DNA from: a virus
Strand: one strand, 5' to 3'
Length of the DNA stretch: 64,000 bases
IMG/VR virus record: IMGVR_UViG_3300033156_000392
Span: 9,254-73,253 of that record
The notes under the pieces were generated by a model. The model was given only the letters and a program-made list of their open reading frames with translations, did no database searches and had not been told where the DNA came from. Positions within the stretch are counted from its first letter, which is position 1; the number at the start of each line of letters is the position of its first letter. Shown in pieces: positions 18,104 to 49,537 of the stretch. The position numbers and the translations under genes are program-made.

Positions 18104-19084
18104 ATGAGAGACTCTGAGATCAAGAAAGTCCTTCTCCGCTACCAGAAGGAGCTCATGTCCTATCCGAACGTGGTGGGAGTCTGTGTGGCAAGGAAGGTGG
18201 TGAGGGGAAAGAGGACGAGAGAAAAAGCCATCCAGGTTCTGGTGAGAGAGAAAGTCCCCGAGAAGTACCTGAGACCAGCACATGTTCTCCCGAAGAGGGT
18301 GGAGGAGGTGCAGACGGACGTTCTGGAGGTGGGTGAGATAAGAGCTCTTGGTCTCAGCGTCAGACCGTACTTGGAGAGAAAGAGAAAGTACAGACCCGTC
18401 GTCGGTGGAGTCTCGTGTGGGAATCCGTACATCACGGCTGGAACTCTTGGAGGATTCGTGGAGAAAGGAGGAAAGACATACATTCTCTCGAACTGGCACG
18501 TCCTTGGAGACGGTGCGAAGAAAGGGGATCCTATCCTGCAGCCTGGGAGATACGACTCTGGGACTCTTGCTGACGAAGTAGCCGTCCTGTCGGAGAAGAT
18601 AGACGTGAGAACGAGGAGAGGACTTCTCTCTCTGATTCTCAGAAGGAAGGTGGAGAACAGGATAGACGCTTCCATAGCCGAGATGGTTACAGAGTACGAT
18701 CCTAAGATTCTTGAGATAGGGTATCTGACGTCCGATCCTGTGAGAGCCAGAATAGGCGACAAAGTCCGGAAGTCCGGGAGAACCACTGGATACACGGAGG
18801 GAGAGGTGCTGTCAGACTCAGCCACCGTGAGAGTGAGCTATGACGACGGTACGGCTCTCTTCACTGAGCAGATAATGACCTCTCCCATCCTGAAGCCTGG
18901 AGACTCAGGCTCATGGCTGGTGAGGGGGAAGAGCGTCTGTGGCTTGTGCTTTGCAGGATCTGACAGAGTGGGTCTCGCTAATCATGTCTCTGACGTCTTC
19001 ACTGCCTTCAAGATAGAGAGAGTAGCTACTGGAGCGGACGTCCCAAAGAGGAGAAGAGTCGATCTCAGATTCTGTCCAGAGTGA
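18104..19084 (+). CDS. Trypsin-like serine protease with N-terminal prodomain-like region
   Basis: GTLG, SNWHV (His), DAS (Asp), PGDSGS (Ser). Confidence 0.85.
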   Translation: MRDSEIKKVLLRYQKELMSYPNVVGVCVARKVVRGKRTREKAIQVLVREKVPEKYLRPAHVLPKRVEEVQTDVLEVGEIRALGLSVRPYLERKRKYRPVVGGVSCGNPYITAGTLGGFVEKGGKTYILSNWHVLGDGAKKGDPILQPGRYDSGTLADEVAVLSEKIDVRTRRGLLSLILRRKVENRIDASIAEMVTEYDPKILEIGYLTSDPVRARIGDKVRKSGRTTGYTEGEVLSDSATVRVSYDDGTALFTEQIMTSPILKPGDSGSWLVRGKSVCGLCFAGSDRVGLANHVSDVFTAFKIERVATGADVPKRRRVDLRFCPE

Positions 19085-19581: not shown

Positions 19582-20477
19582 TTTTTACTCCTCCTCAGAG
19601 GCTTGTACACGCTTTGGAGCCAGTTACTCTTCAAGGGTAACACACGTATCTTGTGGTGAGCCTTCCCAAGGTCGTTTTCTTTCGGAAAGAGAACCCATCT
19701 TGGTGTCCTAGCTATGTTCTGCATCTTCTCATAGACTCTAAGGAGTACTCTCCTGTCTCCTTTTCCGTTATTCTCCTTGATATAGTCTTTTATCTGGTGT
19801 TTAAGGTCTATGAAGAGTCTTCTTGCGTATAACCACTTGTTAACACCTCTGATCAGTAAAATCTCCCTTACTAGCTCCTCTTCCTCCGTACTGAGAGAAA
19901 AGAGATCGGATATGTCTCTCACGACCAGCTCGGGGTGGTTCTGGGCGTAGCTGTCTATGGTGGAGGGAGAGGCTCTCGACAGCTCGTCAAGAACTCTCTT
20001 TCTCCTGTAAACTATGCTTTCTATTTTCTTCTCTATCTCACTGTCTTCCTTCTTCAAGTCTTCTGAAGTGAGGATGAGAACGCTCAGACCGAGTCTTGAG
20101 AGCCATTTCTGCCTCCTTCTGTCTTTCTCCTCTGCGTCTCCAAGTCTATGCCATATCTTTGGTGAAACTTCTATCACGAGTCTCCAGTAGGGGAGAAGAA
20201 AGTCGAGAGAGTAGTATCCAGTCTGTTTCTCGTTCTGTATCTTGAAGTTGTGGTAGAAGTCCTCCCCTTCCACCAGACCCATTCTCTCTAGTATTCTCTT
20301 TATTCTCTTCTCCTCGGAGCTCCACTTCCCGTTCCGTTCGAAGCGGTGCATCACCTCCCCACACAGAACTCTGAAGTTTGCTCTCTTGATTCTCCCTTTC
20401 TTGACGTCTTCTATCACTCTCTTCTCCAGACGTCTGATTCTCTCTCTCAGCCTCTGAATCTCTTTTTCTTTCTTCAT
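19578..20477 (-). CDS. DUF559/Vsr-like endonuclease domain protein
   Basis: S.EE, Y.LDF, LVIEV...WH, D..R..WL...G..VL pattern. Confidence 0.78.
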   Translation of the reverse strand: MKKEKEIQRLRERIRRLEKRVIEDVKKGRIKRANFRVLCGEVMHRFERNGKWSSEEKRIKRILERMGLVEGEDFYHNFKIQNEKQTGYYSLDFLLPYWRLVIEVSPKIWHRLGDAEEKDRRRQKWLSRLGLSVLILTSEDLKKEDSEIEKKIESIVYRRKRVLDELSRASPSTIDSYAQNHPELVVRDISDLFSLSTEEEELVREILLIRGVNKWLYARRLFIDLKHQIKDYIKENNGKGDRRVLLRVYEKMQNIARTPRWVLFPKENDLGKAHHKIRVLPLKSNWLQSVYKPLRRSKK

Positions 20478-20605
20478 TCAGCCTTCACCCTCTTCACTCT
20501 CTCCTCTCTCGTCTTCCAGAATATCCTTCCCCCACAGTAGGGACATATGGGCTTCTCGAGCTTCTCGAACTTTCTCCAGCATCTTTCACACTTGTACACC
20601 TTCAT
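20474..20605 (-). CDS. rpoP: RNA polymerase subunit P (Rpo12/RPB12) homologue, 43 aa, not in ORF track
   Basis: MKVYKCERCWRKFEKLEKPICPYCGGRIFWKTREERVKRVKAE; GAGGAGG RBS; ATGA overlap with next gene. Confidence 0.8.
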   Translation of the reverse strand: MKVYKCERCWRKFEKLEKPICPYCGGRIFWKTREERVKRVKAE

Positions 20606-20624
20606 CCCTCCTCCTCACAGAAGT

Positions 20625-20645
20625 CTAAAAAAATAGTTACTTTAG
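20625..20645. repeat. 21-bp palindrome copy (degenerate)
   Basis: CTAAAAAAATAGTTACTTTAG, 3 mismatches to CTAAAATAACAGTTATTTTAG. Confidence 0.65.
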
Positions 20646-20756
20646 GAGTGTCTGTGTCACTTTTCATGAGTAACATTCTTCTGTTCTTGGACTTTGTCAC
20701 TTCGTCACTCTCCCAAGTTTCTTTTTTTTCACCCAGTTTTTAAGTCTAGTGATTGT

Positions 20757-21334: not shown

Positions 21335-21435
21335 GCTTCATGCACCTCGTCCTCAAAGGACGAACTCTGTTCTCTTGCTTCTGTCTTCTCCATCGGGTAA
21401 ACCTCTCCCAAGAGTAATAAAAGGGTTGTGGTTGT

Positions 21436-23115: not shown

Positions 23116-23421
23116 TCATGCAGAGAGCACCTCCATCTTCTTGTTTCTCTCTCTGCAGTACCTTCTCAGCTCTCTCAGATAGTACGACTTGATGTCTTTC
23201 TCGATCCTTATGATCTCATCCTCCACGAAGTGAACACCCCTGACCGTGAGCACCATGAGAGTTCTGGTGTACGAGAGCTTTCTCGGTCCTCTGAACCTGG
23301 CTCTGAAGGAAACGTTTCTATTTTCCTTCTTCTCCAGGTAGGACTTTAGCTTCTTCTTGAAAGTCTTGAAGAAGCCTTTTGGACCGTACTTCATGTACAG
23401 ATACACGTCTACGACAAACAC
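23116..23421 (-). CDS. Hypothetical basic protein
   Basis: Tight operon packing. Confidence 0.5.
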   Translation of the reverse strand: MFVVDVYLYMKYGPKGFFKTFKKKLKSYLEKKENRNVSFRARFRGPRKLSYTRTLMVLTVRGVHFVEDEIIRIEKDIKSYYLRELRRYCRERNKKMEVLSA

Positions 23422-27334: not shown

Positions 27335-27601
27335 ATGGGTGTTACTCCTAAAGGATTCAGGACTCCTGACGAGAAGGTCATCATAGAGGACGGTAAAGTC
27401 CTGAGTAGGGGTGTACAGGTCAAGGACGAGGCTGAAGTGACTGTCTTTGAAGTAACGGGAGAAGGAAGTGTTTTCCATGGTAAGTCCAAGCATGAGCAAG
27501 ATCCCTCGGTACTCGGTGGAATCGTCATGTACTCACCGACGAAGAAGTGGAGACTTACGGTTTCCGATACTGGACAGATCGTCACGACTCAAATCGAGTA
27601 G
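27335..27601 (+). CDS. Tail-fibre-like small protein
   Basis: C-terminal GIVMYSP.KKWRLTVSDTGQI motif. Confidence 0.55.
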   Translation: MGVTPKGFRTPDEKVIIEDGKVLSRGVQVKDEAEVTVFEVTGEGSVFHGKSKHEQDPSVLGGIVMYSPTKKWRLTVSDTGQIVTTQIE

Positions 27602-27604
27602 GAG

Positions 27605-27793
27605 GTGAGTGAAGTGCCTGACATGGTTGAGAGGACTGGTGGAGAAACATGGGGAAAGAAAGACGTCACCCTCAATGAGGGACAGACCATAGAAATCCGT
27701 GTCGACGGAGTAGCTACAATCACCGCTACTGTCCCTACAGGGAAGAAGTTTGTCGGAACCTACGGCTACTGGGGCGTCCTAGCTTCTCTCTGA
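27605..27793 (+). CDS. Small beta-rich protein
   Basis: GGAGGTG RBS; last gene of the + strand island. Confidence 0.55.
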   Translation: MSEVPDMVERTGGETWGKKDVTLNEGQTIEIRVDGVATITATVPTGKKFVGTYGYWGVLASL

Positions 27794-27982
27794 GCCCTTC
27801 AGTCCCTCCGTCCAGTTCAGCTCGTGCAACAATCTTAGGACAATCTGGAACAGCTCATCCTTTCTGAACTCTGTGTATCTTCTCGAGTCCTTCACCGTCA
27901 GAGAGTAGCATGTTCCTCTCTGTATGCCTCCCCAGAAACGCTTTATTGTTATTTTCTCGTTATCTATGATTTCTGTTCCCAT
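27779..27982 (-). CDS. Small protein, paralogue of 26311..26496
   Basis: RFWGG..RG.CYS motif; GGAGGTG RBS. Confidence 0.7.
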   Translation of the reverse strand: MGTEIIDNEKITIKRFWGGIQRGTCYSLTVKDSRRYTEFRKDELFQIVLRLLHELNWTEGLKGSERS

Positions 27983-28004
27983 GCTCTACACCTCCTTCTT
28001 TTTT

Positions 28005-28487
28005 TTATCTCTCCACTTTCAGCTTCTCAGCCACACTTTTCTTTTCGGTGGAGAGAAAGACCAAGATCATTCCGAAGACCGATCCAGCCATTGAAGCCAT
28101 TCCTAGGTCCACCCCTCCCACCCAGAAGTGAATTCCCTCCAGTATCCCGTACGCCAGCTGAGTTCCAAGCCAGTACAGGCATGCCAGTCTTGCGTAGTAG
28201 TCCGGAGCCTCGTCAAGCCACCACAGGTAGAAATACAGGAAGAGAAGGAAGCATCCAAGACCTCCTATAAATGCTACTGCCACCAGTGTCGCTCCTGAGA
28301 GTCCGTCTATGACCGTGTATCCGGAGAAGAAGAGATACTTCACCTCTGCAGTTCCTCCAAGGGCTCTTGTTAGAGTTGCGTGTCCGTACTCATGGAAAGC
28401 TACAGTGACCATGGAGAAGACCAGAAACGCAGTGAGGAAATCGACAAGGTGAATTATTCGCTCTTTGTTCTTCTTGCTGAGTTTCAT
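28005..28487 (-). CDS. Membrane zinc metalloprotease-like protein (M50-like)
   Basis: HEYGH next to a TM helix; four hydrophobic segments. Confidence 0.65.
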   Translation of the reverse strand: MKLSKKNKERIIHLVDFLTAFLVFSMVTVAFHEYGHATLTRALGGTAEVKYLFFSGYTVIDGLSGATLVAVAFIGGLGCFLLFLYFYLWWLDEAPDYYARLACLYWLGTQLAYGILEGIHFWVGGVDLGMASMAGSVFGMILVFLSTEKKSVAEKLKVER

Positions 28488-28902
28488 AACATCACCTCTC
28501 GGTAGCTACTCTTCTCTTTCTCTTATAAGAGCTATGATTGTTTATAAACTTCTCGTACTGCTTGGCTGTCCAGCATGCTCCGCAGAGAGGACCTTTCTCG
28601 TCTCTGAAGGCATAGACGCCTCCCGGAAGGTCGGAGTGGCACTTATTACACTTGTATCCTGTCACAATGCACCCCATCCCTTTCTCTCCATCTCTCTGAG
28701 AGCTATTCTCAGACACTTCCTGCACTCCTTCTCGTCACCGTTCGCCAGTGCCTCTATCGACCAAGCCAGCCACTCTATGCTCTCGGAGTACCAGTCCTTG
28801 TCAGCGACTCTCTCTGGGTCAGAGAGTCTTGCTATGAGTCTTGCCAGACCAGCTATCAGCTCTCTTCTCTCCCTGTCAGAGTGTAGCTTCATCCTCCTCT
28901 CC

Positions 28903-29209
28903 TCAGAATCTCTTTCCGTGCTTGTACTCTCTCTTCTTGTTTCTCTCCATCTTCTCCAGAATAGCTTTCTCTATGTCCATCTTCCATGCATGGCAGAAGT
29001 CCAGAATCCGTATGATGCAGTCAGCAAACTCCTCAGCTATTCTCTCTTTCCTGTACAATGGTCTTCTGAACTTCTCCAGAGCCTCTGAGAGCTCTGAGTG
29101 CATCAGAGCTATGCACTCACCAGGGGCTTCTCTCCGATTCCCAGAAACCTTTCTCTACAGCTATTCTGTGTGCCTCCTCCGCAAGCTCTGTGATGCTTTT
29201 GTATGTCAT
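28903..29209 (-). pseudogene. MazG-like NTP pyrophosphohydrolase, frameshifted as sequenced
   Basis: HSELSEALE...EEFADCIIRILD...KHGK; N-terminus MTYKSITELAEEAH...KGFW from ATG 29209 is one base out of frame at the G4 run near 29123-29126. Confidence 0.7.
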
Positions 29210-29296
29210 AAACTCACCTCCTTGAGTGGATAGTGAACATTCTTCGCTTCTTCCCTTTCCCCACCCAGAACCTGACTTTCTTTCCTTTCTCTCTCC

Positions 29297-29566
29297 TCAC
29301 TTCTTCACCTTCTTTATTATTTCTCTGAAGAGAGTGGAGTTGTCAAGCAGGTACTCAGACCCTTTCTCGTCGACAAGTACGGTCCACTTTATTCCTATGT
29401 ACTTTATTCTCCCTCTCACTCCCATAGCTTCTATGACGTCTCCCGGGAGGAGCAAAGGATGCATCATCAGTATTAAGCCAGTTAGGAAGTCCACTATTAC
29501 GTCTTTCAGGACGTACAGGAGAGCTCCAGCAAGAGCGAGAGCCAAGACGTCGCTCAAGAGAGTCAC
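29297..29566 (-). CDS. Minimal MscS-family mechanosensitive channel-like protein
   Basis: LKDVIVDFLTG...GDVIE..G..G.I..IG...T.L....G.....N pattern. Confidence 0.7.
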   Translation of the reverse strand: MTLLSDVLALALAGALLYVLKDVIVDFLTGLILMMHPLLLPGDVIEAMGVRGRIKYIGIKWTVLVDEKGSEYLLDNSTLFREIIKKVKK

Positions 29567-29577
29567 CTCTTGGAGAG

Positions 29578-29707
29578 TGGAGATCGGTGAAAGGAAAAGT
29601 GACTGAGGCTCATAGAGACGGAATCACCTCCAATGTCTGTGCCGTCTCTCACCAAAGGGTGGTGATGTGAAACGGTAACCCACGCATTTACCATCCACCG
29701 ACCTCCA
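29578..29707 (-). ncRNA. Candidate structured RNA (multi-stem junction)
   Basis: 14-bp closing stem with 2 G-U pairs, three internal hairpins; TATA TTTTAAGA at 29735-29728 predicts a start at the stem's 5' end. Confidence 0.55.
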
Positions 29708-29799
29708 GAGAATGTATGTCTTTCCTCTCTTAAAAGGTTACTGTTGTTTATAAACTCTGAGTAGTTACTCTTTTATTTCCATGAAAAGAGTATAATCTG

Positions 29800-29940
29800 A
29801 TGGAAGAGAAAATATGCTACATATGGCGGTGTCCGAGAAGGGCTGTAGCTTCTGTAAGAGGTATCTATCTCTGTGAGGAGCACCTAAAGGAGCTCTCTGA
29901 GGGCTTCAGAACGGTAGAGCCTAAGAAGAAGGGAAAGTAG
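29800..29940 (+). CDS. 46-aa Zn-finger microprotein (not in ORF track)
   Basis: MEEKICYIWRCPRRA...YLCEEH. Confidence 0.5.
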   Translation: MEEKICYIWRCPRRAVASVRGIYLCEEHLKELSEGFRTVEPKKKGK

Positions 29941-30020
29941 CTTCCTGTGCCTGTAGCTCCAGACCAGTCCTCTTGGAGTGAGTATACTTCTCAGCATCCC
30001 TCTGAACTCAGCAGTAGTCC

Positions 30021-30317
30021 TTATAAGTCTTTTCCCTTCGTCTCTACGTCTGTAAGCTGTAGCTGTTGCGGTTTCTTCTTCTGCTCCATGAGGAAGGAGA
30101 AGAGGTTCCTCAAGTCTTCCTTGTCAACTGGCTCCATCGTCACTTTCAGGGCTCCGAGGAGCTTTGTCACGTACGCCACTCCCGCTGGGCACTGCTTTCT
30201 GAGTGTTTCTATCTCTTCTATGCTCTCTTTCTTAAGAGGGAAGTATATAAGGAATCTGTTCTTGTCGTTCTTCAGTGTTATCTCCCAGTCTATAATTTCC
30301 TTCAGCTTCTCCTTCAA
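30021..30317 (-). CDS. Hypothetical protein
   Basis: GAGGTGA RBS; operon context. Confidence 0.55.
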   Translation of the reverse strand: MKEKLKEIIDWEITLKNDKNRFLIYFPLKKESIEEIETLRKQCPAGVAYVTKLLGALKVTMEPVDKEDLRNLFSFLMEQKKKPQQLQLTDVETKGKDL

Positions 30318-30784
30318 GTGGAATCACCTCCCAGTCTTGCTATCACCAAGCTGTTCACGGATTCTTGGAGTGAGAGAGTTTCTTCTTCCACCCTGAAGTA
30401 GAAGGGTGGGTTCCATTTTTCCATGCTCTCGTATCTGAAGGAGTAGACCATCTGCCACGCCCCTCTGGCTACTCCGTATAGGAGAAGATACTTCGGGCCT
30501 GGACTCTTCAGTGAGAGGAGCTTCATCAGTATCTCTGAGAAAGTGGAGAGGTCCTCTGGGACGGTGTGCAGAGGAATCTCTATCTTGAACTCACTGGAGG
30601 TATAGTTCTTGTTAGCTATCTTGAGAACTACGGGGAGAGTTATGACGTCTTCGTAGCTCTTCATCTCTTCCTTTCTGACGAAGTCTTTCTTGTCCCTGCT
30701 GTAGAGAGCCACTCCCTGTAGCATCTGCTTTCTCACTTTCTCTCCTCCATCCATCTCTTGAGATCGTACTTGATGTCTCCACAC
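30314..30784 (-). CDS. Hypothetical protein; true start probably internal
   Basis: Operon context. Confidence 0.5.
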   Translation of the reverse strand: MWRHQVRSQEMDGGEKVRKQMLQGVALYSRDKKDFVRKEEMKSYEDVITLPVVLKIANKNYTSSEFKIEIPLHTVPEDLSTFSEILMKLLSLKSPGPKYLLLYGVARGAWQMVYSFRYESMEKWNPPFYFRVEEETLSLQESVNSLVIARLGGDST

Positions 30785-30937
30785 TTCACACAGTGGAAGT
30801 ATCCTATGCTCTCCATTGGCAGATAGTCATGCTGGCACATGAGTCTACTTTTTCTGTAGCTGAGAACGCTCTCAACCTCTCTCTGACACTCCGTACACAG
30901 ACTGTACAGACTGCAGCTCCCTCTCCTTCCACACCCG

Positions 30938-31219
30938 TCACACTCTTCCGTCATCTCTCTTCTCCTCCTCTTTTTTCTTCTCTCTTCTCACCTTCTCGAC
31001 CTCCTCTGGGAAGAGCTCTGCGAGTACTCCCTGTATCGAGACTGGCTGGCCACACTTGTCACACTCCAGAGACATGGCCATGCTCTCTCCAAGCTTGTAT
31101 CCCACGGCCTTGACTCTCTTTGATCCACATCTCTTGCACTTGTACACCCTTCTCTCTCCGTGTCTGAAGTCCACCAGCTTGAGCTTCTCTTTCGGTACGT
31201 TCAATATCACCATACACAT
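30938..31219 (-). CDS. Zn-ribbon protein
   Basis: CKRC...CDKC; GGAGGTGA RBS. Confidence 0.6.
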   Translation of the reverse strand: MCMVILNVPKEKLKLVDFRHGERRVYKCKRCGSKRVKAVGYKLGESMAMSLECDKCGQPVSIQGVLAELFPEEVEKVRREKKKEEEKRDDGRV

Positions 31220-31229
31220 TCACCTCCTT

Positions 31230-32330
31230 TCACTCCTCACTCTCGAAGACCATAGGAATTTCTATGTTCAGCATAGTTTCTCCCTCCTCTTCCTCCTCTA
31301 TAGTCTCCTCATCCAAGTCGTCTAAAGAAATTGTTTTTTTATCTTCTCTCTCCCTTCTGTCTCCGAGTACGGCAATCTCGTACGAAGTCCATTTCTGCTC
31401 AGCCATAAATCTTCTCAGCTTGAAGACGAAGACAACGGGAATAGGAAGGAGAGAGTATGCTCCGAGAAAGGGTAGAAGGACGTAGATGAATCCTGATATA
31501 AGAGTTCCGTAGAAGATTGCTGATATGAAGGCGTAGGGAAGCTCCTTTAGAAGTATCTCGAACATCTGGAGAGGCGTCTTCTTCTTGACTACTTTCTTCC
31601 ATCCAACGACGTCGTACTCCTCGTCTCCCTTTTTGAGAGTCCCTATGCTCTCCTCTCTCACCTCCGTCAGGTAGTTTCTCTCCGCCATCCCTGTCTTCAA
31701 CCACTTCACGTCTCCGGTCTTGTTTATGACCATTGAGTACTGGTAGAGCTCTCTGTTCAGGAGCTTGTTCTGATCTATTCTGGCCAGTGTCTGTATGGCT
31801 CTCTCTCCGGCGTACTGCTTCAGAAAGTCTCTGTCATACTTGTTGTCTGGACAGCTCTTGCAGACTATGAAGTCGAAGTTGGTTCTCATCTCTACTGGTA
31901 ATCCATGAAATCTATGTAATCCCATTATAGTGAGAATGTATCCATTAGTCCTATTACCTAATTCTCTGAATTCATGTCTTATTCTGAAGAACTTGGCCAA
32001 GGCTTCCTTCTCCTGTGGGACGAGAGTGACGTCGTCCACGAAGACTATCTGGATGGGTTTCTCGTTCAGTGCTCCGTAGCACAGATCGAGTCTTCCAGCC
32101 TTTATCTCGAGAGCGTTGACGTTCTTCTCTCCGTATATCTTGCATGCTTCCTCCACCAGCTTCCTAACTAGCTCCGACTTTCCAGCTCCTTGTCCACCGT
32201 AGAGAATGACGTTTCTCCAAATTATGTTGTTGGGCTTGTACGGGAGATCGTCTCTTACTGGTATCACCACTTTGTTGTAAGGGGGAAATATCTCTCTCAG
32301 AATCTCTCTGTTTCTCGGCTTAGGAGGCAC
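31230..32330 (-). CDS. P-loop ATPase (FtsK/HerA/A32-like) with C-terminal TM helices
   Basis: Walker A GGQGAGKS, Walker B IVFVDD, LP.EMRTNFD Arg-finger-like segment; two hydrophobic helices; acidic tail. Confidence 0.7.
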   Translation of the reverse strand: MPPKPRNREILREIFPPYNKVVIPVRDDLPYKPNNIIWRNVILYGGQGAGKSELVRKLVEEACKIYGEKNVNALEIKAGRLDLCYGALNEKPIQIVFVDDVTLVPQEKEALAKFFRIRHEFRELGNRTNGYILTIMGLHRFHGLPVEMRTNFDFIVCKSCPDNKYDRDFLKQYAGERAIQTLARIDQNKLLNRELYQYSMVINKTGDVKWLKTGMAERNYLTEVREESIGTLKKGDEEYDVVGWKKVVKKKTPLQMFEILLKELPYAFISAIFYGTLISGFIYVLLPFLGAYSLLPIPVVFVFKLRRFMAEQKWTSYEIAVLGDRREREDKKTISLDDLDEETIEEEEEGETMLNIEIPMVFESEE

Positions 32331-32806
32331 CTCAAGTCACCCACAACTCTTTGTCGTCCCTCTCTATCTCCAAGATGAGGGACTTTATTTTTGTTCTCCG
32401 TCCTTTCTTGTCGACAGCCTCCACTCTCTTTATTTCTCCGAGGCTGGAGAGAGAAGTCTCTTGGAGAAGCTCCTTAAGCTCTCTCTCAGTGAGGACGGTC
32501 TTCATCTCACCACATGTTTCACTCTTCCTTCCAGATTTATAAACCTTCACACCATCCACTCTCCGGGAGTCCCTATTTCTCTCCATTTCTTCTTGAGTGA
32601 CCGTGCCTTTTCCACGGCCTCTTTCTCCTCCCCGAAGACGTGTCTCTCCTCGTATCTGGCTACCCCTTTCTCGGTCAGACCAGTGGCAACGAGAGTGACT
32701 ATGCTTCTCTCACCGAACTTCTCTCTCTCTTTCTCGACGTATATTCTGTAGTGTATACTTTCTGGAAACGCCTTGAAGAGGAAGTCGTCTTCCACGTCAA
32801 GAGCCT

Positions 32807-32827
32807 CTAAAATAACTGTTATTTTAG
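32807..32827. repeat. 21-bp perfect palindrome
   Basis: CTAAAATAAC-T-GTTATTTTAG; contains the stop codon of 32819..33040. Confidence 0.9.
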
Positions 32828-33036
32828 CACCTCCTTCTTTCTCTTTCTCACGTGTATCACCAGTGTTTTCTTCTCTCTGTCGACTACTATTCTCCCCTCA
32901 AGATCGTCTTCCTTCTTGAATCCGAGCTGTCTCAAGTAGAACCAAGCTATGGGGAAGATTCTTGACGCCTTCACTCTCACGAACTTCTTCCACTGCTTCT
33001 CTTCATATTTGTTTGTGGAGTCTGTATCCATTCCTA

Positions 33037-33387: not shown

Positions 33388-33408
33388 CAGACACCTATCG
33401 TCTTCTTG

Positions 33409-33456
33409 GTTTATAAACCTATTCTTTGTTTATAAACTTCCGTACTTCTTTTATAC
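33409..33456. promoter_or_regulatory. Bidirectional GTTTATAAAC-centred promoter
   Basis: GTTTATAAAC 33428-33437 with TTTATAAA 10 nt to the left and TTTTATAC 11 nt to the right. Confidence 0.65.
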
Positions 33457-33473
33457 GAGAAGCTGGATGCGAA

Positions 33474-33614
33474 GTGACCTTCTTGTAACGTGTGCGGGAG
33501 GAAGGATGAGAGAGATGGTGAGGAGAGGTCTCCAGCACTCTCTCCTGCACTGTATGAAAGCCGTGTGGAGCCTCTCCTTACCCTTCTTTCTCTCCCAGCT
33601 GGCATGTATGTCAC
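33474..33614 (+). ncRNA. Candidate structured RNA (long hairpin)
   Basis: 33517-33534 pairs with 33566-33582 (17 bp, one G-U, one bulge); GTGAC/GTCAC closing pair; TATA at 33449. Confidence 0.45.
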
Positions 33615-33642
33615 CCTCTCTCACCTCTACTCAGAGGCGTTC

Positions 33643-42519: not shown

Positions 42520-42538
42520 CTCACCTCTCTTTCTTTTG

Positions 42539-42559
42539 CTAAAATAACAGTTATTTTAG
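42539..42559. repeat. 21-bp perfect palindrome
   Basis: CTAAAATAAC-A-GTTATTTTAG. Confidence 0.9.
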
Positions 42560-46131: not shown

Positions 46132-46548
46132 TTCACATCACCTCACTTTCTTTCTCCTCCTTCTTGTATGCCCGTATCATCGAGGCTGTGCCTCTCTATG
46201 GCCGTGAAGTCTACTCGTTCTTATCCTCTCCCTACTCTGCTGTACTCTCTCCAGCACTCCAAGTGTGTCATAGGTAACTCTCTTCTCTCGTACTTGAAGG
46301 TGTCTCTCCGGACTCTCCCTCTGTCTATGACCACCACTCTGTCGCCTTCCTTGAGTCTTCCTCCACATACGGGACAACGTATATCTCCCAAACTCATCAC
46401 TCTCCTTTCTACTCTCGTTTAAATGTGTGCTCACCAGTCATCGGTCTTAGCACACTTTGAGCAGTAGTTTCCGTATCTCTCTTTCTCGTACTCCGTCAAG
46501 TGCTCTCCACAAGTCAGACATTTTTTCACCTTTCCACCTCTTTCTCTC

Positions 46549-47613: not shown

Positions 47614-47624
47614 ATCTCTATCTC

Positions 47625-47645
47625 CTAAAATAACTGTTTCTTTAC
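47625..47645. repeat. 21-bp palindrome copy
   Basis: CTAAAATAACTGTTTCTTTAC. Confidence 0.75.
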
Positions 47646-47897
47646 GACCATCTCAACTCTCCGAACATCACTATCTCAGGCGTTATGAGAGGCGTTATGG
47701 AGAGTGGTATGCCGGAGTGTCTCATAACGTCTATACCGTCAAATGAGCACTCTATCAGCACCAGAGTGGACGAGGAGAATAGTGTATTCCTCACCTCTCT
47801 CCTCTCTCCCTCTACTCCTACTCCACTCTCTCTAACGCCTCTAACGCCTCTCTTTCCTTCTTTTCTCACTATATCTCCTCTTTTCTCTCTACGAATG

Positions 47898-47918
47898 CTA
47901 AAAAAACAATTGCTTTAG
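47898..47918. repeat. 21-bp palindrome copy (degenerate)
   Basis: CTAAAAAAACAATTGCTTTAG. Confidence 0.6.
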
Positions 47919-47950
47919 GCTTCTCTCAGGCAGTTTCTACCGTAGGGCGG

Positions 47951-47971
47951 CTAAAATAACTGTTTCTTTAG
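47951..47971. repeat. 21-bp palindrome copy
   Basis: CTAAAATAACTGTTTCTTTAG. Confidence 0.8.
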
Positions 47972-48706: not shown

Positions 48707-49516
48707 CTCCTCCCACTCTCTCTTGGAGTGAGTATGAACTCGCTCTCTCTCATCTGTAGCACTCTCTCAAGGCTCTCAAGGCTCTTCGTCGCTACTCCCT
48801 CTCCGTCTATCACGACTGCCAAGACGACTCTATCTCTGTCTCTCACGATCTCCCTCTCTCCGTTTCTTCTCTCATCAGAGCCTTGCTCTCTGGAGGTATC
48901 TTGATATTTGCTCCAGAGTGCTCTCACGGTCTCTATCCATCCACCTCACCTGTGTGCTATCTGTATCCTTCTCAGACACAAGGGACAGACCGGACGTCCT
49001 CTCCAGTCTCTCATAGAGTCTGCAGTCCAGACTCTCTCGCAGGTGGGACACTTCACTATCTCTATCCGTCTGCCCGTGAGTCTCTCGCTCTCGTTAAGAA
49101 GTTCTCCTTCCATATCTCTCACCTCTCTACTCCCATATATCGTGGTTGTTAACACAGTCGCAACAGTTCTGTACTATCCAGTCTTCGTCCGTCTCGCTTG
49201 CTCTGTACTCATTCCCACATACCGGGCACGTCCACACTTCTTCTTTCTCCATTTATCTCACTCCTTCTCTCACAGTCTCTTCTTCTCCACCTTCTCCATC
49301 AGACTGTCTCCGACTTTGATTTCCTCGCTCCCGACGTAGTTTATCCAGAGTTTGCCCCGTACCTCTTCCACGAATACCAGCCCTATATGTTCACTGCTGA
49401 AGGCGTTCTCTCTTCTCACCTCAAGACAGACGTAGTTCCCTTTCTTCATCTCGTCTATCCGAATCTCTAAACCCATTCACATCACCTCTCTATCTCTTCG
49501 TCTCTCTAAGAAGTTG

Positions 49517-49537
49517 CTAAAATAACAGTTATTTTAT
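49517..49537. repeat. 21-bp palindrome copy
   Basis: CTAAAATAACAGTTATTTTAT. Confidence 0.85.

Follow-up and report, generated by a model that had tools for sequence, protein, structure and literature searches.

In the hok/sok type I toxin-antitoxin system of plasmid R1, translation of the mRNA is held down by a long-range helix of the 5' end; an overlapping upstream frame (mok) matters by its translation and not by its product, and the downstream product is a small membrane protein. The 5'-terminal stem-loops of the ompA type stabilise bacterial and phage mRNAs, and unpaired 5' tails are poorly tolerated in such leaders. To our knowledge, hardly any cis-regulatory RNA leader has been shown to be functional in archaea, and for archaeal viruses the field is almost empty. 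Long archaeal leaders as such are common in T. kodakarensis, for which PMC4247193 lists 245 mRNAs with 5' UTRs of 50-300 nt (~20%; median 103 nt), many of them before transporter genes. The paper states that neither attenuators nor riboswitches had direct in vivo support in Archaea.

The element analysed here is a stretch of 130 nt on the minus strand (29707-29578) of the window, by which we mean the whole 64,000-nt piece of the IMG/VR record IMGVR_UViG_3300033156_000392 under study. The record belongs to a tailed, heat-loving archaeal virus, the TerL protein of which is at most 26% identical to that of any isolate phage. The element sits between a promoter and a tiny channel-like gene, mini-MscS, and ends 8 nt before the GAGGTGA ribosome-binding site (RBS) of this gene, in line with the preliminary description of the locus, where the end had been placed just before that site (Table 1). 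The genome is very tightly packed, and the start codon is found 20-35 nt after most promoters. The next minus-strand gene upstream of the promoter ends at 30021 and a plus-strand ORF intervenes; hence the promoter is predicted to serve mini-MscS, and the 130 nt must belong to its transcript. Here and below, all statements on transcription of the element are predictions from sequence. Stable RNAs of hyperthermophiles are usually G+C-enriched; the element, with a G+C content of 51.5% against ~48% in the window, lacks such enrichment.

Table 1. Features of the element and its surroundings. Positions are those of the window; RNA positions are counted from the first base of the element.
Feature	Position	Strand	Details
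TTTATAAA box, likely TATA box	29747..29754	-	Core of the palindrome GTTTATAAAC (29746-29755)
Second A/T box TTTTAAGA	29728..29735	-	11 nt after the first box
Predicted single-stranded 5' tail, given a start near 29724	29708..29727	-	Depends on the predicted start site
Clamp 5' arm UGGAGGUCGGUGGA	29694..29707	-	Holds Shine-Dalgarno-like GGAGGU and the A of AUG 29694
43-codon ORF	29563..29694	-	AUG 29694, UGA 29565-29563; fills the element
Hairpin 1, GGUAA/UUACC	29674..29692	-	RNA 16-34 (16-20/30-34); present in the sequence, absent from the reference MFE structure
Hairpin 2, UCACCA/UGGUGA	29649..29665	-	RNA 43-59 (43-48/54-59); in the reference MFE structure, 37-90 °C
Hairpin 3, AGAGACGG/CCGUCUCU	29614..29649	-	RNA 59-94 (59-66/87-94); 20-nt loop holds GGAGGUGAU
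U-rich run UUUUCCUUU	29590..29598	-	Just 5' of the 3' arm; seen in the sequence only
Clamp 3' arm UUCACCGAUCUCCA	29578..29591	-	RNAfold and stem scan
RBS GAGGTGA (29569-29563) and mini-MscS gene	29297..29569	-	Pfam MS_channel_2nd

The upstream promoter claimed in the preliminary description is genuine, recurring and of archaeal type. The TTTATAAA box has 13 copies in the window against 0.31 expected, and the palindrome GTTTATAAAC has eight against 0.01 expected. An 8-bp A/T-rich TATA box thus recurs before genes, with start codons at a fixed range. On the plus strand, inspection by eye showed no TATA-like box ahead of the element. The TTTATAAA promoter is possibly bidirectional, since a 46-aa ORF at 29800 diverges from it on the plus strand. 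Of the contexts of TTTATAAA, 9 of 13 in minus orientation and 7 of 13 in plus orientation have a box with at least seven A/T out of eight positions 6-17 nt downstream. The distances between TATA box and start site used below follow PMC4247193 and PMC5316973, and the latter is also the source for the position of the promoter-proximal element and for the -10 A/T element. An archaeal start is expected about 23-27 nt downstream of its TATA box, with a pyrimidine-purine at -1/+1. Two candidate starts were considered, one near 29724, without a Y-R dinucleotide, and one near 29706, at U-G. Should the TATA box be the perfect TTTATAAA, with the second box serving as the -10 A/T element, the start would be near 29724, ~17 nt upstream of the first stem base; this position is favoured because ribosome-binding-like motifs are found behind the second box at other units. 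A start directly at the first stem base, as originally suggested, is less likely, as it would hold only with the second A/T box acting as the TATA box. What had been described as the RNA's own promoter is a real promoter, but simply that of the mini-MscS unit and not a separate one.

The minus strand of the element folds at -53.6 kcal/mol in RNAfold (z -4.14), an energy matched by none of 200 shuffled sequences; the plus strand is weaker (-46.2 kcal/mol, z -3.65). The comparison with shuffled sequence that had been suggested as a check thus came out in favour of a fold. The 14-bp end-to-end stem with two G-U pairs that had been noticed by inspection was confirmed on the minus strand, both by RNAfold and by a separate stem scan. 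This clamp consists of 14 uninterrupted pairs (seven G-C, five A-U and two G.U). Its mean pair probability is 0.82-0.96 from 37 to 90 °C in the reference and in a natural variant, the energy parameters at 80-90 °C being extrapolations, and it persists in longer predicted transcripts from either start site. The GGAGGU motif in the 5' arm has an unpaired probability of 0.00 at 37 °C and 0.04 at 80 °C.

Inside the clamp, the agreement with the original proposal is partial. Its exact structure has an energy of -41.7 kcal/mol and is not the reference minimum free energy (MFE) structure. All three proposed hairpins exist in the sequence, but only hairpin 2 belongs to the reference MFE structure, where RNA positions 33-39 pair with 60-66, a pairing that competes with hairpin 3. 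The proposed pseudoknot between the loop GAGGUGAUU (78-86) and its putative partner AGUCACUUU (104-112) is not supported: both strings are present in the sequence, but the central U82-A108 pair is broken in the natural variant.

One independent variant is at hand, the X1 and X2 contigs being identical to each other. It carries five substitutions in the 43-codon ORF, which lead to four residue changes, and eight in mini-MscS, all of them silent (Fisher p = 0.007). The sole change inside the clamp, 29590 A>G (plus strand), turns G13.U118 into a G-C pair and so strengthens the clamp, and it converts the last U of UUUUCCUUU to C. In terms of covariation, this single variant offers one G.U to G-C change in the clamp and no double compensatory change. 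The substitutions U38G and U43A break pairs of the reference MFE structure, and the inner fold differs between reference and variant. U43A removes the outermost pair of hairpin 2; five of the six pairs of this hairpin are in the variant MFE structure at 37 and 65 °C, and hairpins 2 and 3 are both part of that structure. A hand search for pairings that could link variant positions 38/43 to 104/108 gave no fitting helix.

Locally the fold is more than chance; across the window this is only partly so. The whole gap between the genes has a z of -2.84 and takes fourth place among 54 strand-gaps. By GC-corrected energy the element ranks about 8th of 12,776 windows of 130 nt, at -3.2 sd, a level that the best few of ~12,800 windows reach anyway. 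Stems of 14 bp (up to two G.U pairs, span of at most 200 nt) number six in the 64-kb window and 4.8 +/- 2.7 in 47 shuffles, 16 of which reach six; a second count by a slightly different rule lists five real stems.

The 43-codon ORF has the signals of a gene start. GGAGGT precedes its ATG by 6 nt, and this ATG follows the second promoter box at 33 nt, a spacing that resembles that of a real gene (~33-35 nt at the 28541 unit). Its UGA is located inside the GAGGUGA motif, 5 nt before UUG 29557, and overlaps the GUG of mini-MscS. By composition and variation, the ORF looks non-coding. The codon score is -0.152 against a mean of -0.145 for 231 spurious small ORFs; 54% of the latter equal or exceed this value, and among 264 true 43-codon gene segments 5.7% score as low. 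The purine share is 0.45, compared with 0.54-0.70 in the 11 neighbouring and control genes scored. The encoded peptide contains 18.6% Ser, 11.6% His and no Glu, whereas the long ORFs of the virus have 7.8%, 1.8% and 8.9%, respectively. The frame remains open in the variant. Among 5.8 billion proteins, we found none sharing words with the peptide, not even a gene call from the virus's own record, and a search of 1.84 billion representatives with the 43-aa ORF returned only one repetitive 5,940-aa protein. A conserved peptide frame had been named at the outset as an explanation that would displace an RNA element; codon usage, the variant and the homologue searches all argue against one. The sequence could instead serve as a short upstream ORF for which the act of translation matters rather than the product.

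The mini-MscS gene starts at UUG 29557 (86 aa, P0001) or at GUG 29566 (89 aa). The protein matches Pfam MS_channel_2nd (E 1.5e-6; 28.7 bits, the cut-off being 20.2) and PDB MscS chains (E 4e-4), with query residues 6-79 aligned to residues 91-165 of 7dlu; it would be a minimal MscS, composed of the pore helix and the beta-domain only. A MazG-like gene lies behind it. The predicted openness of the mini-MscS RBS is 0.43-0.57 at both 37 and 80 °C. Direct control of mini-MscS is therefore not evident, as its RBS is not sequestered. An RNA thermometer was rejected, because the masked RBS is that of the ORF and stays paired at 80 °C, while the RBS of mini-MscS is equally open at both temperatures. 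The 130 nt could also not be explained as an N-terminal extension of mini-MscS, the in-frame upstream stretch having a stop and no start codon.

Searches for known families and relatives placed the element in no described group. No Rfam family matched anywhere in the window at gathering thresholds; at E <=10, nothing but snR58 came up in 29400-29900, on the plus strand and with 17.3 bits where the threshold is 70. ARAGORN found no tRNA or tmRNA genes in the window, which agrees with the original statement that the element is not a tRNA. A tRNA-derived attachment site was likewise dismissed: the 5' arm resembles a tRNA variable-loop/T-stem string in one bacterial match, and ARAGORN finds no tRNA here. 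In viral contigs, queries with the 366-aa ATPase, mini-MscS and an alignment of ATPase homologues revealed no relatives. A metagenome scan identified three loci, one of which (L003) is 99.5% identical and covers only 30205-32258 of the window, the other two (L004, L005) being distant ATPase relatives without the element region. Mini-MscS has no near-length homologue in these searches but itself. Neither blastn of 28000-33000 against phages and plasmids nor tblastn of the ATPase against phages gave a match. A look-up of RNA runs for 27500-32000 of the window listed none.

The simplest alternative to a functional RNA is a spacer, in which 130 nt of decayed or junk DNA happen to form a clamp and hairpins by chance pairing. 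Such a spacer is compatible with shuffled windows as rich in 14-bp stems, with the modest z of the whole gap, with an inner fold that changes between reference and variant, with five substitutions in 130 nt that show no clear avoidance of reference MFE pairs, and with the lack of a homologue, an Rfam family or a further copy in the searches above. It fits poorly with a tightly packed genome whose promoters mostly lie 20-35 nt from start codons, with a clamp that spans almost exactly the distance from the predicted start region to the next RBS at a z of -4.1, and with the strengthening of the clamp by its sole change. We consider a spacer rather unlikely, but it deserves weight. Less likely again is an ordinary small protein gene, the 43-aa ORF being the first cistron, translationally coupled to mini-MscS, with a fold that is incidental or tunes translation. 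The well-spaced GGAGGT and ATG, the stop codon overlapping the RBS and GUG of mini-MscS, the open frame in the variant and the presence of other real genes of 43-61 aa in this virus (e.g. the zinc-ribbon ORF 20474-20605) would all suit such a gene. The ORF, however, has the codon score and purine share of spurious ORFs, four of its five changes alter residues against none of eight in mini-MscS, and its Ser/His-rich peptide without Glu is unlike the virus's long ORFs; it has no homologue in the searches and no gene call in its own record, and the predicted fold leaves no part of its RBS unpaired.

If the element were a trans-acting sRNA, separate or processed, termination at 29598-29590 or a cleavage would set it free to act on viral or host mRNAs, possibly through the anti-Shine-Dalgarno-like UCACC and AUCUCC segments or the exposed GGAGGUGAU loop. 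The strong fold, a promoter at hand, an internal U4CCU3 run and a second folded stretch after the same type of promoter (33471-33620) speak for it. An archaeal oligo-U terminator or attenuator would call for a run of at least five U at which transcripts end; the element has only UUUUCCUUU, which is weak as a candidate site of pausing or termination. Termination there would remove the 3' arm of the clamp, and the natural variant shortens the run. After the clamp there is neither a terminator-like run of at least five U nor a promoter for mini-MscS. Predicted duplexes with 105 viral start regions did not surpass those of shuffled RNAs: in RNAduplex, a crude test that ignores self-structure, the real minimum was reached by 14 of 82 shuffles and the real mean by 21 of 82. 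The sequence of the element is also unlike that of the 33.5-kb stretch, and an sRNA of this kind seems improbable to us. At the DNA level, the element could be a miniature inverted-repeat transposable element or a protein-binding inverted repeat, its ends being inverted repeats (12 of 14 positions complementary as DNA) with CTC flanking both sides. This is very hard to reconcile with a single copy in the 73-kb genome and with two mismatches that both become G.U on the transcribed strand; the 3-bp flank repeat carries no weight. A scan for the two-arm pattern found one stretch in IMG/VR and eight among one genome each of 185,579 species; the matches are all in unrelated bacteria, their interiors are unrelated, and some are tRNA-like or G+C-rich palindromes.

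Given the unusually good fold and an appearance that is not protein-coding, the element is probably a folded mRNA leader. We tentatively favour the more specific reading, in which it acts in cis as the structured 5' leader of the mini-MscS mRNA made from the 29754-29728 promoter. Of the two identities offered initially, a viral sRNA or a structured regulatory leader, the latter is the natural one because of the position between a recurring archaeal-type promoter and the mini-MscS RBS, and it agrees with the fold; a separate sRNA gene is not indicated, since a second promoter would not fit in and the element is not followed by a clear terminator. A long 5' UTR is nothing unusual for a Thermococcales mRNA (PMC4247193), which also counts for a leader.

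The proposed leader could work as follows. Transcription would begin near 29724, less likely near 29706, and yield an mRNA encoding mini-MscS and the MazG-like protein. Once its 3' arm is made, the clamp would close the ~130-nt leader and bury the first RBS and AUG, those of the 43-codon ORF, whose product bears no mark of selection. The RBS of mini-MscS, 8 nt past the clamp, would be about half open before a weak UUG start. With so compact a leader, the output of the small pore-type membrane protein is probably kept low and under control, by blocked upstream initiation and possibly also by shielding of the 5' part of the mRNA from decay. Ribosomes that start at AUG 29694 before the clamp has closed would unzip it and terminate at the UGA inside the mini-MscS RBS, and thereby couple or occlude the start of mini-MscS.

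Compared with the T. kodakarensis leaders of PMC4247193, the viral leader is alike in its predicted length (~135-155 nt), the TATA promoter before it and the gene with a GGDGRD-type RBS after it. Those leaders are reported there as not notably structured, with none shown to regulate, whereas the viral one has a predicted end-to-end 14-bp clamp and is known from sequence alone. The likeness to hok/sok consists in a predicted long-range helix involving the 5' end, in an upstream frame whose stop overlaps the start region of a membrane-protein gene, and in a small membrane protein as the downstream product. The helix here, in contrast, closes the leader alone instead of joining both ends of the whole mRNA; inspection by eye gave no sign of an antisense RNA gene and the downstream RBS is not sequestered, and the viral element is not a member of that family. 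As with the ompA leader, pairing in the 5' region could shield the mRNA from decay that depends on the 5' end; unlike there, a start near 29724 would leave a mostly unpaired tail of ~17 nt, and the archaeal decay pathway differs.

We speculate further that the leader might be a ribosome-gated clamp that times a viral pore, a kinetic switch of the hok/mok type for a viroporin- or holin-like gene, with the 33.5-kb RNA as a sister device. Early ribosomes that reach AUG 29694 ahead of the synthesis of the 3' arm would then open the clamp and pass on to the UUG of the minimal MscS, and the folded mRNA would be locked at low output. We regard this elaboration as a long shot; we know of no such switch described for an archaeal virus. 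If the proposed leader is real, it would offer a small, testable model of post-transcriptional control at high temperature and reveal how a virus doses a protein that may damage membranes. A single orphan sequence and its one variant make a candidate that merits a place in RNA-seq and probing studies of this virus group, and not a discovery.

Two minor observations concern other parts of the window. The tail together with base 29707 has a 21-nt identity to the sense strand of a protease-like ORF (18468-18488); a repeated 21-mer occurs in 5 of 40 shuffles. Behind a promoter of the same type there is another stretch of ~140 nt, at 33471-33620 on the plus strand, that folds strongly, is poor in ORFs and runs against the direction of gene flow; it shows no meaningful alignment to the element, and its fold, paucity of ORFs and orientation suggest that the virus may make small RNAs.

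The predicted 130-nt folded element on the minus strand, before the mini-MscS gene, is closed by a clamp, a helix of 14 unbroken pairs, two of them G·U, that joins its two ends. The clamp, three inner hairpins and both strings of a pseudoknot suggested in the preliminary description are all present in the sequence. The minus strand folds at -53.6 kcal/mol (z -4.14), and in the comparison with shuffled sequence, a check named beforehand, 0 of 200 shuffles were equally good; the plus strand gives -46.2 kcal/mol (z -3.65). The mean pair probability of the clamp is 0.82-0.96 over 37-90 °C, and the clamp is still predicted in longer transcripts. The stems of the structure proposed earlier exist, but its exact inner fold lies about 12 kcal/mol above the minimum free energy (MFE) fold of the reference (window) sequence, which favours pairing of RNA positions 33-39 with 60-66, counted from 29707. 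Hairpins 2 and 3 appear in the MFE fold of a natural variant. The GGAGGU motif in the clamp is predicted to be closed (unpaired probability 0.00-0.04), and the mini-MscS ribosome-binding site roughly half open (0.43-0.57).

The two-part promoter motif noticed upstream is real and recurrent: the window has eight copies of GTTTATAAAC where 0.01 would be expected, and 13 of TTTATAAA where 0.31 would be. In many TTTATAAA contexts a second A/T-rich box lies 10-12 nt downstream; with seven of eight A/T at 6-17 nt as the criterion, it is found in 9 of 13 minus-orientation and 7 of 13 plus-orientation contexts. At most units a convincing gene has its start codon 21-35 nt past the second box, and four promoter copies have a 25-nt extended pattern in common. 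This recurring palindromic TATA-type box is the main promoter type of the virus, and some of its sites may work in both directions.

PMC4247193 gives a median of 23 bp from TATA box to start site. At the element, the likelier assignment takes TTTATAAA as the TATA box and TTTTAAGA as a -10 element, with a start at about 29724, 17 nt upstream of the clamp. It is favoured by ribosome-binding-like motifs within 20-24 nt past the second box in units 7353(-), 22039(-) and 33429(-), which would otherwise precede the transcript. Less probably, the second box is the TATA box and transcription starts at about 29706, the second base of the clamp, behind a pyrimidine. This second assignment is the one originally proposed; its exact start, at the first stem base, is not supported. 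Since the preceding gene on the minus strand stops at 30021, with a 46-aa ORF on the plus strand in between, mini-MscS is served by this promoter and by no other; the arrangement thus makes the 130 nt the 5' portion of its mRNA. The 46-aa ORF, which runs outward from that palindromic TATA box, has a gene-like codon score (0.195), a C-x4-C...C-x2-H pattern and a weak match to Pfam WRC (E 0.0086), and possibly encodes a small zinc-binding regulator. The leader's predicted 5' tail has a 21-nt exact identity (23/24 over 24 nt) with the sense strand of an ORF for a 326-aa protease-like protein; this may be chance, since some repeated 21-mer also turned up in 5 of 40 shuffled windows.

Positions of features in the window
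Feature	Position	Strand	Remarks
Clamp, 5' arm	29707-29694	-	UGGAGGUCGGUGGA
Clamp, 3' arm	29591-29578	-	UUCACCGAUCUCCA
43-codon ORF	AUG 29694 to UGA 29565-29563	-	
mini-MscS gene	29297-29566	-	
MazG-like gene	28903-29296	-	
46-aa ORF	29800-29940	+	
TTTATAAA before element	29754-29747	-	
TTTTAAGA before element	29735-29728	-	
GTTTATAAAC boxes	20755, 21434, 26537, 28540, 29746, 33409, 33428, 51825		
Further TTTATAAA sites	7353, 10886, 22039, 24297, 32536		
25-nt extended pattern	20741, 21420, 28526, 29732		
21-nt identity, leader tail	29727-29707	-	
21-nt identity, protease-like ORF	18468-18488	+	
Folded gap	29567-29799	-	z -2.84, rank 4 of 54 strand-gaps
Gap ranked above it	33388-33642	both	
Gap ranked above it	46401-46548	+	z -4.59
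Other top-ranked locus, 130-nt scan	47701	-	
Other top-ranked locus, 130-nt scan	33471-33501	+	
Other top-ranked locus, 130-nt scan	23251-23281		
Second strong fold	33471-33620	+	-64.5 kcal/mol, z -4.74; whole gap z -4.92
Top-ranked fold	47700-47960	-	-4.0 sd
Top-ranked fold	23251-23400		within coding sequence
CTAAAATAACTGTTATTTTAG copies	32807-32829, 42537-42559, 47623-47644, 47951-47971, 49510-49537		
Weaker CTAAAATAACTGTTATTTTAG copies	7996, 14567, 35575, 20640		

A natural variant was obtained from two DNA runs of different studies (X1 and X2), whose 512-nt contigs spanning 29399-29910 are identical and were thus counted as one. It differs from the window at 14 positions, 13 of which are known. 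Eight of these 13 lie in mini-MscS (29450-29483) and are all silent, five lie in the element, and none falls in 29708-29910, which holds the promoter and the covered part of the 46-aa ORF. As RNA, the changes in the element are U38G, U43A, A104G, A108U and U118C. The last turns the clamp pair G13·U118 into G-C; U38G and U43A disrupt pairing in the reference MFE fold and occupy unpaired or terminal positions in the structure proposed earlier. The suggested pseudoknot is not supported, its middle being disrupted by A108U. The variant is compatible with a conserved clamp and a loosely defined interior, though five changes prove nothing.

The mini-MscS product matches Pfam MS_channel_2nd (E 1.5e-6) and MscS chains in PDB (E 4e-4; query residues 6-79 with residues 91-165 of 7dlu). 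The alignment covers the pore-lining helix and the beta-domain of MscS; the protein lacks all other parts and has no near-length homologue except itself among 5.8 billion proteins. This predicted channel-like stub would be worth controlling. In the window record, frame shifts break up the neighbouring gene for a MazG-like pyrophosphatase; its 66-aa C-terminal piece matches PHROG 3301 (E 1.7e-18). The variant contigs of X1 and X2 have one base less at 29123 and an additional C after 29258, which yields a single 133-codon frame. At this locus the window record probably has indel errors or represents a broken allele.

The element had been proposed to be a viral sRNA or a structured regulatory leader. 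We consider the latter the best reading, tentatively and at somewhat less than an even chance. In its most likely mode of action, the leader would fold during its own synthesis, and once the 3' arm emerges the clamp would bury the GGAGGU and AUG of the upstream frame, leaving the mini-MscS ribosome-binding site about half open before a weak UUG start. The leader would suppress wasteful or interfering upstream initiation and may also stabilise the mRNA. The few ribosomes loading before closure would unzip the clamp and end translation at the mini-MscS ribosome-binding site, resulting in kinetic coupling.

Chance structure in a spacer is rather less probable and keeps appreciable weight. When 12,776 windows of 130 nt were folded on both strands with GC-corrected energy, the element lay at -3.2 sd with seven windows lower, about the level expected of the best few among that many. 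Unbroken stems of at least 14 bp (at most two G·U, span up to 200 nt) number six in the real window, or five by a slightly different count, against 4.8 +/- 2.7 per dinucleotide shuffle, and 16 of 47 shuffles reach six; the clamp alone is thus no evidence. We also folded whole each gap of at least 90 nt left uncovered by a crude set of 106 ORFs picked by codon score (Table). The case for a real structure is carried by position rather than by stem count, since the clamp nearly fills the interval from the predicted transcription start to the next ribosome-binding site.

It is unlikely that the 43-codon ORF inside the element is a fast-evolving small protein gene. GGAGGU stands 6 nt upstream of its AUG, which lies 33 nt past the second box as in the 28541 unit with its real 160-aa gene, and its stop falls within GAGGUGA, the mini-MscS ribosome-binding site. 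However, its codon score (-0.152) matches that of spurious small ORFs (mean -0.145, n = 231), and just 5.7% of 264 true 43-codon gene segments score that low. The purine share is 0.45, against 0.54-0.70 in all 11 neighbour and control genes scored, and the composition is unusual (18.6% Ser, 11.6% His, zero Glu). No protein in the 5.8-billion collection shares a word with it, so it was not called as a gene in its own record; a full HMMER search of 1.84 billion representatives returned a single match, to 25 residues of a repetitive 5,940-aa protein. In the variant its frame stays open, and the five differences alter four residues (S9A, H10Q, S31G and H32L), against none altered by the eight in mini-MscS (Fisher p = 0.007). 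A processed or terminated sRNA is more doubtful still: the sRNA half of the original proposal is unsupported, and no evidence for trans targets was seen among 105 viral start regions. An element acting at the DNA level is by far the least probable explanation.

The structured leader resembles hok in logic, where fold-back is combined with control through coupling to mok. In its proposed working it is closest to the long 5' UTRs of Thermococcales presented in PMC4247193. It matches no Rfam family, membership tests assign it to no named RNA family, and no tRNA or tmRNA was detected, in line with the initial view that it is not a tRNA. There is no second copy in the 73-kb genome, and viral contigs, metagenomes, phages and plasmids yielded no relatives with the region; no RNA runs holding it were listed. 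When IMG/VR and one genome for each prokaryotic species were scanned with a two-arm pattern, only unrelated bacterial loci with unrelated interiors matched; judged from these sequences, there is no family of elements with the same ends. The element is an orphan candidate, and few such elements have been tested in this biological setting.

The full virus record (73,253 bp), of which the window covers 9254-73253, has direct terminal repeats, and its T4-type large terminase and family B DNA polymerase indicate a tailed double-stranded DNA virus. The large terminase shares at most 26% identity with that of any isolate phage; its best matches include Halogranum tailed virus 1, Thermus phages and Meiothermus phages. 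Several features, including archaeal TATA-type promoters and ribosome-binding sites of the GGAGGTGA type, are consistent with an archaeal host that is probably hyperthermophilic. Taken together, I, V, Y, W, R, E and L account for 0.464 of long-ORF residues, and by a relation reportedly due to Zeldovich and colleagues such a share indicates a very hot habitat.

Two units of the same promoter family, 20606-20740 (-) and 21335-21435 (-), have 80-130 nt from promoter to first convincing gene; unlike the element, these gaps fold no better than shuffles (z -0.9 to +0.1). The former contains a 32-codon ORF, and the stop of this ORF overlaps the start of a zinc-ribbon gene. The second strong fold, at 33.5 kb, has no detected sequence likeness to the element. 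It is ORF-poor, lies directly past two tandem GTTTATAAAC boxes and is oriented against the genes around it, which are on the minus strand; none of the ORFs tested has a poorer codon score than its 47-codon ORF (-0.589). At 47.7-47.85 kb, tandem GGCGTTAGAG repeats lie opposite their complements. The 21-nt palindrome CTAAAATAACTGTTATTTTAG, present in at least five copies, probably serves as the operator of a viral regulator; some copies are in leaders, and a weaker one lies past the 20756 promoter, ahead of the zinc-ribbon ORF at 20605.
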